A DNA stretch of 3,120 nucleotides from Escherichia coli (GTDB lineage: Bacteria; Pseudomonadota; Gammaproteobacteria; Enterobacterales; Enterobacteriaceae): assembly GCF_003334815.1 (NCBI RefSeq), contig NZ_QOWO01000085.1. One strand, 5' to 3'. Both the position numbers and the translations under genes were made by a program. Positions 1,438-3,120 of the stretch are shown one piece after another (the stretch's first letter is position 1; each line of letters starts with the position of its first letter). The notes below the pieces were generated by a model. It was not told the DNA's origin. It searched no databases and worked only from the letters and a program-made list of their open reading frames with translations.

Positions 1438-1441
1438 TGTT

Positions 1442-1463
1442 ATCGCCGCCTCCGGGCGGCGAT
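1442..1463 (+). other. Intergenic hairpin (9-bp stem ATCGCCGCC / GGCGGCGAT, loop TCCG) between ORF3 and ORF4; no U-tract, so likely an RNA stability or processing element rather than a terminator
   Basis: Perfect inverted repeat seen directly. It is followed by GGGAGA (1467-1472) and ATG 1483 rather than a T-run. Confidence 0.4.
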
Positions 1464-1482
1464 TCAGGGAGAACGATTAATC

Positions 1483-2670: not shown

Positions 2671-3096
2671 ATGCAATATGCGAAACCTGTCACTCTGAAC
2701 GTTGAAGAGTGCGACCGTCTCTCCTTTCTACCGTATCTGTTTGGCAACGATTTTCTGTATGCCGAGGCGTATGTGTACGCGCTGGCGCAAAAAATGATGC
2801 CGGAATATCAGGGAGGCTTCTGGCATTTCATCCGCCTGCCGGATGGTGGCGGTTACATGATGCCGGATGGCGACCGTTTTCATCTGGTCAACGGTGAAAA
2901 CTGGTTTGACCGCACTGTGAGTGCTGATGCCGCAGGTATCATCCTGACTTCCCTTGTGATTAACCGCCAGTTGTGGCTGTACCACGACAGCGGGGATGCG
3001 GGACTGACACACCTTTACCGGATGCGCGATGCGCAGTTGTGGAGCCACATCGAATTTCACCCCGAATGCAACGCGATTTACGCGGCACTGGACTGA
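2671..3096 (+). CDS. klcA: Anti-restriction protein, KlcA/ArdB family, 141 aa
   Basis: Good SD and ATG. The protein carries the pattern I associate with KlcA/ArdB anti-restriction proteins: [11 protein letters not shown] ... EAYVYA ... [19 protein letters not shown] ... [10 protein letters not shown] ... [12 protein letters not shown] at the C-terminus. Its size (141 aa) also fits. This is recall of the family, not a database hit. Confidence 0.88.
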
Positions 3097-3114
3097 TTAA
3101 CGGACGGGGCGGCA

Positions 3115-3120
3115 ATGCCG
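3115..3120 (+). other. Possible start of the next + strand gene (ATG at 3115 after GGACGGGG); truncated by the window edge
   Basis: ATG lies 18 nt after the klcA stop and is preceded by a purine-rich stretch. Only 6 nt are visible, so it cannot be assessed. Confidence 0.2.

Follow-up and report, generated by a model that had tools for sequence, protein, structure and literature searches.

A conserved intercistronic hairpin in the M.EcoGIX-type methylase operon of conjugative plasmids: a possible barrier to mRNA decay

Background

A hairpin that lies between two genes of the same operon raises the question of what it does there. The window analyzed here, by which we mean the whole 3,120-nucleotide stretch of Escherichia coli DNA, contains such a case. 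The initial annotation described a stable GC-rich stem with no U tract between two co-transcribed genes, and proposed that it could set differential mRNA stability or translation between the two parts of the operon, or act as a processing site. We ask which molecule folds, whether the base pairing is conserved among relatives and which known class of element the hairpin resembles most closely.

Across its whole length the window has matches in more than 5,000 plasmid records of Escherichia, Klebsiella, Salmonella and Shigella, which share 90-99.5% identity with it. These plasmids are mostly conjugative and belong to IncI, IncK and IncF types. In the best match, an IncK2/Z plasmid, the window lies within the leading region, with ParA/ParM, ImpB-like and DinI-like genes on one side and ssb on the other. 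The leading region of this closest match also carries a group II intron with an ltrA reverse transcriptase/maturase gene (L001 5997-7721), approximately 1.4 kb upstream of the methylase operon. Near-identical copies of the plasmid region occur in assemblies labeled Streptomyces morookaense and uncultured Oscillibacter (L033 and L034), most likely through contamination or mis-binning.

Results

The hairpin lies inside an operon with a single canonical terminator

The window hosts five genes, and the four of the operon are on the plus strand. The first gene of the operon (84-767) encodes an orphan DNA methyltransferase of the M.EcoGIX type (NCBIfam NF010253, E = 4e-150), which is named 'DNA methylase' in plasmid records. 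The second cistron, found in the open reading frame list (768-989), encodes a small protein of the YubE family (PF27407 YubE occupies the same position in syntenic loci), and its start adjoins the methylase stop codon with no gap. ORF3 (1003-1437) lies directly 5' of the hairpin and encodes a protein (yfcB/yubF) annotated as belonging to the DUF1380 family (PF07128 in syntenic loci), with its TGA stop codon at 1435-1437. The last cistron of the operon is ORF4 (1483-2259), a yfdA-like gene of 258 amino acids that is annotated as hypothetical or yfdA and for which no Pfam or NCBIfam family was matched. After a non-coding stretch of 411 nt, an antirestriction protein of the KlcA/ArdB type follows (2671-3096; open reading frame list and annotation).

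A terminator scan of the whole window called one site only, the stem at 2264-2282 directly after ORF4, and did not call the junction hairpin. The called site, which also appears as an inverted repeat, is a canonical intrinsic terminator on the plus strand, composed of GGCGGGGA-AAA-TCCCCGCC followed by TTTTT (2264-2287), and the Mtase-YubE-DUF1380-ORF4 operon ends there. No promoter-like site was detected by scan anywhere in the window, and ORF4 would thus be left with no separate promoter. By RNA-seq and 5' RACE on transconjugants, two clusters of the IncI1 plasmid pESBL, those of the M.EcoGIX methylase and of klcA, have been defined as operons, as have their F homologues (Wen et al., PMC12672017). 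Each of the two is strongly induced early in conjugation from an ssDNA promoter lying upstream of it (PMC12672017). Because the M.EcoGIX cluster is an operon (PMC12672017), the hairpin falls within the methylase operon, where it separates the third cistron from the fourth. The proposed co-transcription of the flanking genes therefore fits both the published single operon with its upstream ssDNA promoter and the single canonical terminator that we find after ORF4.

Anatomy and folding of the hairpin

The hairpin is composed of a 5' arm at 1442-1450 (ATCGCCGCC), a 4-nt loop at 1451-1454 (TCCG here, TGCG in many plasmids) and a 3' arm at 1455-1463 (GGCGGCGAT), all on the plus strand and delimited by inverted repeat, fold and alignment. 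The two arms are fully complementary over 9 bp, and seven of the nine pairs are G-C. Four nucleotides lie between the ORF3 TGA and the stem. Downstream, 3 nt separate its end from the Shine-Dalgarno-like GGGAG of ORF4 (1467-1471), which was recognized from sequence and is kept in close variants, and 19 nt separate it from the ORF4 ATG (1483); the distance from GGGAG to the ATG is 11 nt. The 8 nt past the stem hold a single T on either strand. The anatomy given in the initial annotation was thus right in all its parts: a perfect GC-rich stem, no U tract, genes on the same strand on both sides and the ORF4 Shine-Dalgarno sequence just downstream.

When the region 1425-1500 is folded as sense RNA, the 9-bp helix is present in both the minimum free energy and the centroid structures (-22.6 kcal/mol, z = -3.3). 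Dinucleotide shuffles of the same region average -14.0 kcal/mol, and none of 200 folds as well as the native sequence. The complementary strand folded as DNA forms the same hairpin (-14.3 kcal/mol, z = -3.4). The minimum free energy structure also includes a 4-bp extension of the helix, CUGA/UCAG (1434-1437 and 1464-1467), which we discarded since it is weakened by T1464A in many plasmids and is absent from distant loci. By our estimate, a perfect 9-bp repeat with a loop of 3-8 nt is expected by chance approximately 0.09 times per 3.1 kb and 0.001 times per 45-nt gap. The presence of the hairpin at the ORF3-ORF4 junction is more than chance, and the hairpin is kept at this junction in independent lineages as well.

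Close plasmid variants and prevalence

We aligned 16 sequence variants of the junction with 90-100% identity. All 18 stem positions are invariant among them, and the loop is either TCCG or TGCG. Variation is found at base 1464, just past the stem (T or A), and in the spacer before the ORF4 ATG, which has several alleles. The only indel within the hairpin is a tandem duplication of CCTGC that adds 5 nt in the loop region. This common variant (L005) forms a more stable stem of 12 pairs, including one U·G, with a 3-nt loop (-25.3 kcal/mol). Since the flanks of these close plasmids are also highly conserved, the invariance of the stem among them is no more than suggestive.

The junction element was detected in 3,289 of 5,426 complete E. 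coli genomes (approximately 61%), at a median of one place per positive genome. Almost all of these places (4,397 out of 4,451) are on plasmids, and 24 of 25 sampled matches lie at the end of a DUF1380 gene.

Compensatory changes keep the stem in distant loci

Distant relatives were collected through ORF4. An exhaustive profile-free search returned full-length proteins at 24-64% identity, and another search with the ORF4 protein listed only matches of at least 83% identity. From the encoding contigs and a genome scan we obtained the distant loci L017-L025 and L037-L040, whose sources include Buttiauxella, 'Ca. Erwinia dacicola', Entomohabitans and Raoultella. The gene order Mtase-YubE-DUF1380-ORF4-antirestriction is kept in the distant loci, with ORF4 at 38-64% amino-acid identity, and at least six divergent lineages with this gene order have a hairpin at the same DUF1380-ORF4 junction. 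The gaps between the two genes measure 46-64 nt in the distant loci, and each of them contains a GC-rich hairpin that folds better than dinucleotide shuffles (p = 0.000-0.08 per locus).

In a MAFFT alignment of the gaps, made blind to structure, every invariant column falls within the stem, with the exception of two bases of the stop codon. For the covariation counts we relied on a MAFFT alignment of the hairpins alone, in which the arms came into register with no structural input. Standard pairs occupy 97.1% of the cells of this alignment, compared to 81% in shuffles, and none of 500 shuffles reaches the observed value. Four of the nine pairs have changed on both sides (A-U/C-G; U-A/G-C/A-U; C-G/U-A; and G-C/C-G), and 14 cells with double changes are observed where 4.3 are expected. 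The covariation score is 0.438, compared to 0.150 in shuffles (reached by 0 out of 500), and it does not exceed 0.111 with the partners shifted by one to three columns. RNAalifold predicts the same helix. The check proposed for this hairpin, namely whether homologues keep the stem through compensatory changes, is clearly positive with respect to paired cells, doubly changed pairs and covariation above controls. Because compensatory changes keep the stem in homologues, the structure of the hairpin is under selection.

The position of the hairpin is also kept. The stem starts 4-8 nt past the upstream stop codon in 12 of the 13 loci, and the junction hairpin is anchored to this stop codon. The distance from the stem to the ATG, at 18-32 nt across the 13 loci, is fairly constrained as well, and from these spacings a role tied to ORF4 may be considered.

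Sense RNA is favored as the folding molecule

The hairpin can fold both as mRNA and as transferred DNA, and total folding energies do not discriminate between the strands, the antisense strand being about as stable and of similar or lower energy in several loci. The non-Watson-Crick pairs are more informative. A G·U pair is tolerated in sense RNA, and the same position is mispaired as C·A in the antisense DNA that is transferred. We found that sense-strand G·U pairs occur five times independently (L021, L024, L025, the L037 group and the +5 variant), and there is a single wobble in the opposite direction, a C·A at the terminal pair of L039. Because the wobbles divide into five G·U and one C·A, a function at the level of the sense RNA is favored over one of the T-strand DNA. 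This count is modest evidence, and it suggests that the sense mRNA is the molecule that folds.

Assignment to known classes of elements

The hairpin has the stem-loop of an intrinsic (Rho-independent) terminator (9 bp with a 4-nt loop), and a U/T tract, defined as at least five T in the 8 nt after the stem, is absent on both strands from 13 of 13 loci, with a maximum of four T. We therefore rejected this class in every lineage. Also rejected was a dispersed palindrome of the REP/BIME type, as the junction element is single-copy per plasmid and mostly plasmid-borne. No Rfam covariance model matches 1438-1482, even at E values up to 1.

ORF3 and ORF4 are in the same frame in the window, and past the TGA the 45-nt spacer stays open in that frame. 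A bacterial SECIS or other UGA readthrough signal was nevertheless discarded: of the 13 loci, 4 have TAA as the stop codon, and 6, among them the common +5 and -1 variants, have a gap whose length is not divisible by three. Sporadic DUF1380-ORF4 fusion proteins of 418 and 375 amino acids are present in databases, some of them on several contigs (for example, P0056 and P0069), and the 375-residue fusion appears to be a deletion that removes the hairpin. A coupled small open reading frame starting at the TGATG overlap (1437-1574) was dismissed, as its ATG is missing in distant loci.

An ssDNA promoter (Frpo class 1-3) or ssi was rejected because the hairpin is 22 nt long and the window has no promoter-like site; the real long hairpin of the window is at 2283-2670. 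Insulation of the ribosome-binding site was not retained either, since accessibility did not change consistently when the stem was disrupted in silico. A rut-like tract for Rho past the stem was likewise set aside, the C-over-G skew being weak.

Other structured elements in the window and in relatives

Within the non-coding stretch that precedes the klcA/ardB-like gene, the antisense (transferred) strand of 2283-2670 forms one long DNA hairpin (-98.6 kcal/mol, z = -4.1; sense strand, -85.7 kcal/mol, z = -2.3). This region fits the 'class 2' ssDNA promoter described by Wen et al. (PMC12672017) and the 'Frpo3' of a bioRxiv preprint (10.1101/2025.04.03.647016). A weak Rfam match to AS-pc01 (RF02875, 'antisense to pHK01_035') on the minus strand at 2260-2359 overlaps both the terminator of ORF4 and the beginning of the ssDNA-promoter region. 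At 26.3 bits against a gathering threshold of 79 (E = 0.099), it may be a chance match, and a literature search on AS-pc01 and pHK01 found nothing relevant.

A second U-less GC-rich hairpin, GGGGCGGCA-A-TGCCGCCCC, is located at 3097-3120, where it is cut by the window end, and at 12097-12142 of L001. It starts 9 nt past the stop codon of the antirestriction gene, and 5 nt separate it from the Shine-Dalgarno sequence of the DUF1380 gene that follows. This hairpin is kept with one flipped pair in L021, L024, L025 and L037, and a T tract accompanies it in L017 only. Because a second hairpin follows the antirestriction gene and is kept in relatives, gene-end hairpins appear to be recurrent in leading-region operons.

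Two further arrangements were observed upstream of ORF4. In a metagenomic relative with no DUF1380 gene (L020 2424-2500), the 77-nt gap between YubE and ORF4 holds two strong GC-rich hairpins (-40.5 kcal/mol in total), one just past the stop codon and the other just before the Shine-Dalgarno sequence. In L026 and L028-L032, with ORF4 at 24-34% identity, the gene has no preceding methylase cluster and lies directly behind a long, highly structured non-coding region. These upstream regions share sequence blocks, such as GTCGGCACGGCG, and ArdA or antirestriction genes follow ORF4. The structured region resembles an ssDNA promoter.

Discussion

A barrier to 3' exonucleases as the best explanation

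We propose that the hairpin forms in the sense mRNA of the M.EcoGIX-type operon as a conserved intercistronic stem-loop, and that it acts as a barrier to 3' exonucleases and stabilizes the upstream segment of the transcript. We hold this reading tentatively, at a little short of an even chance. Because the U tract is absent, RNA polymerase would pass through the hairpin. An endonucleolytic cut, or a premature 3' end, would then arise downstream within ORF4, and 3'-to-5' exonucleases like PNPase or RNase II would halt at the base of the stem. The Mtase-YubE-DUF1380 segment would, as a result of this halt, outlive the ORF4 segment and persist longer in the cell.

Intercistronic and U-less stem-loops are known to shield the RNA that precedes them from 3' exonucleases, and conservation is common among them (PMC5927463, PMC6061677). 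Protective intercistronic stem-loops are a widespread and conserved feature of E. coli operons, malE-malF being their prototype (PMC5927463). The junction hairpin has the sequence features of this class: it is a stable U-less stem-loop past a cistron within a polycistronic unit, and it is conserved among homologous operons. By analogy with these elements, the structure, its compensatory conservation, the missing U tract and the position inside the operon suggest an effect on the decay of the upstream segment. Several observations stand against a decay barrier. A reading of the junction sequences, including those of the distant loci, found no conserved RNase E motif (RN|WUU) flanking the stem. 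The distance from the stem to the ATG is fairly constrained too, as a role tied to ORF4 would have it. The relative lacking DUF1380 (L020) still has a hairpin directly before the ORF4 Shine-Dalgarno sequence, and the call of the sense strand depends on five wobbles versus one, with the antisense strand folding about as well.

Alternative explanations

The same hairpin of L020, retained as a strong structure in front of ORF4, would be expected if the element served the downstream gene, either as a stem-loop protecting the 5' end left by an RNase E cut just upstream, as in papBA, or as an insulator or standby element that sets ORF4 initiation independently of ORF3. The proximity of the stem to the Shine-Dalgarno sequence (3 nt) and its confined distance from the ATG in all lineages point in this direction, and E. 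coli operons with 5' protective structures beside RNase E sites have been documented (PMC5927463). However, when the stem was disrupted or deleted in silico in 10 loci, the unpaired probability of the ORF4 ribosome-binding site shifted little and in both directions. Moreover, no conserved RN|WUU site was found upstream of the stem, and the small hairpin is missing from L026-L032, in which ORF4 comes first after a long structured region. We thus regard a role for ORF4 as unlikely, though worth keeping in mind. The GC-rich stem with its tetraloop straight after a stop codon also recalls a weak attenuator or pause site, namely a U-less partial terminator or a Rho-assisted stop that would lower ORF4 relative to the first three genes, possibly on the ssDNA template specifically. 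The hairpin after the klcA-like gene, with its T tract in L017 only, indicates that such hairpins can switch between states. Against attenuation, the U tract is missing at the junction in every one of the 13 loci and on both strands, and intrinsic termination is expected to be inefficient when it is missing. Over the 80 nt that follow, C exceeds G only mildly (GC skew -0.13), and this stretch is translated from an ATG 19 nt away, which makes poor ground for Rho, and ORF4 would have no other promoter, given that the window contains no promoter-like site. Attenuation therefore seems distinctly improbable to us.

The possibility that the hairpin has no present function, being a relic such as a decayed terminator from formerly separate gene cassettes carried along in a conserved region, draws on the mosaic nature of leading regions and on the conserved flanks of close plasmids, which make the invariance of the stem among them prove little. 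It is contradicted by the covariation: four doubly changed pairs and 97% of paired cells are unexpected where selection is lacking, the hairpin has been kept at one junction while the spacer around it diverged beyond alignment, and the sole indel in close variants lengthens the helix. We give the relic a small probability. A smaller one still goes to a function of the transferred T-strand (antisense) DNA, whose hairpin would act in the recipient as a landing site for a protein or primase, as an SSB-free duplex patch or as a nuclease-related signal. The region does enter recipients as ssDNA and templates transcription from ssDNA promoters (PMC12672017), and the antisense DNA hairpin is stable in the window (-14.3 kcal/mol, z = -3.4) and of similar or lower energy than the sense strand in several loci. 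Yet the five independent G·U pairs of the sense strand become C·A on the T-strand, with one case to the contrary, a 22-nt hairpin is far below the size of known ssi or Frpo elements, and no position-dependent enrichment of palindromes was found in leading regions (bioRxiv preprint, 10.1101/2025.04.03.647016). A last proposal, very improbable in our judgment, is that the hairpin and its sibling after the klcA-like gene are adaptations to transcription from ssDNA templates, in which fast-folding GC hairpins at cistron boundaries would peel the nascent RNA off the T-strand and limit persistent RNA:DNA hybrids. If this were true, it would render early mRNAs translatable, or would mark sites where hybrid RNA primes the synthesis of the complementary strand.

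Significance

A literature search found no mention of the junction hairpin, and Rfam has no family for it. We consider it an undescribed yet unsurprising case of the known class of intercistronic stem-loops, with no new mechanism. Its interest lies in its setting. The operon encodes an orphan methylase that protects incoming IncI and IncF plasmids from restriction, and the compensatory retention of the hairpin, from E. coli plasmids to relatives in Buttiauxella, Erwinia, Entomohabitans and Raoultella, would imply that post-transcriptional tuning of this early operon is under selection. The site lies in a medically relevant and extremely widespread plasmid operon, and it offers a target for mutational tests of gene dosage in leading-region operons.

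Comparison with known systems

The junction hairpin shares with intrinsic terminators a GC-rich 9-bp stem with a 4-nt loop straight after a stop codon. It differs from them in being U-less in all 13 loci and in lying inside an operon, and the canonical form is present for comparison in the same DNA (2264-2287). With ssDNA promoters and ssi elements (Frpo class 1-3), it has in common hairpin-forming DNA in the same plasmid region and setting. Those elements, however, span 100-400 nt and fold on the T-strand into hairpins in which -35 and -10 boxes are rebuilt, as at 2283-2670, whereas the junction hairpin measures 22 nt, has no promoter-like hexamers and has wobbles that favor the opposite (sense) strand.

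The known U-less stem-loops near stop codons, like the junction hairpin, are energetically stable and have no uridine-rich stretch after the stem. Unlike in those cases, a translated gene starts here 19 nt downstream, there is no marked C-rich and G-poor tract, and a canonical terminator closes the transcription unit 800 nt later. The protective stem-loops of the malE-malF type, described in the programmed differential decay of operons (Dar & Sorek 2018, PMC5927463), also depart from the junction hairpin in some respects. The malE-malF element is a REP repeat, whereas the junction hairpin is single-copy and locus-specific; and most of the structures in that study (PMC5927463) lie within coding sequence, whereas the junction hairpin fills a dedicated spacer of 45 nt. 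What the two have in common is a stable, GC-rich and U-less stem-loop, conserved and placed just past a cistron inside an operon.
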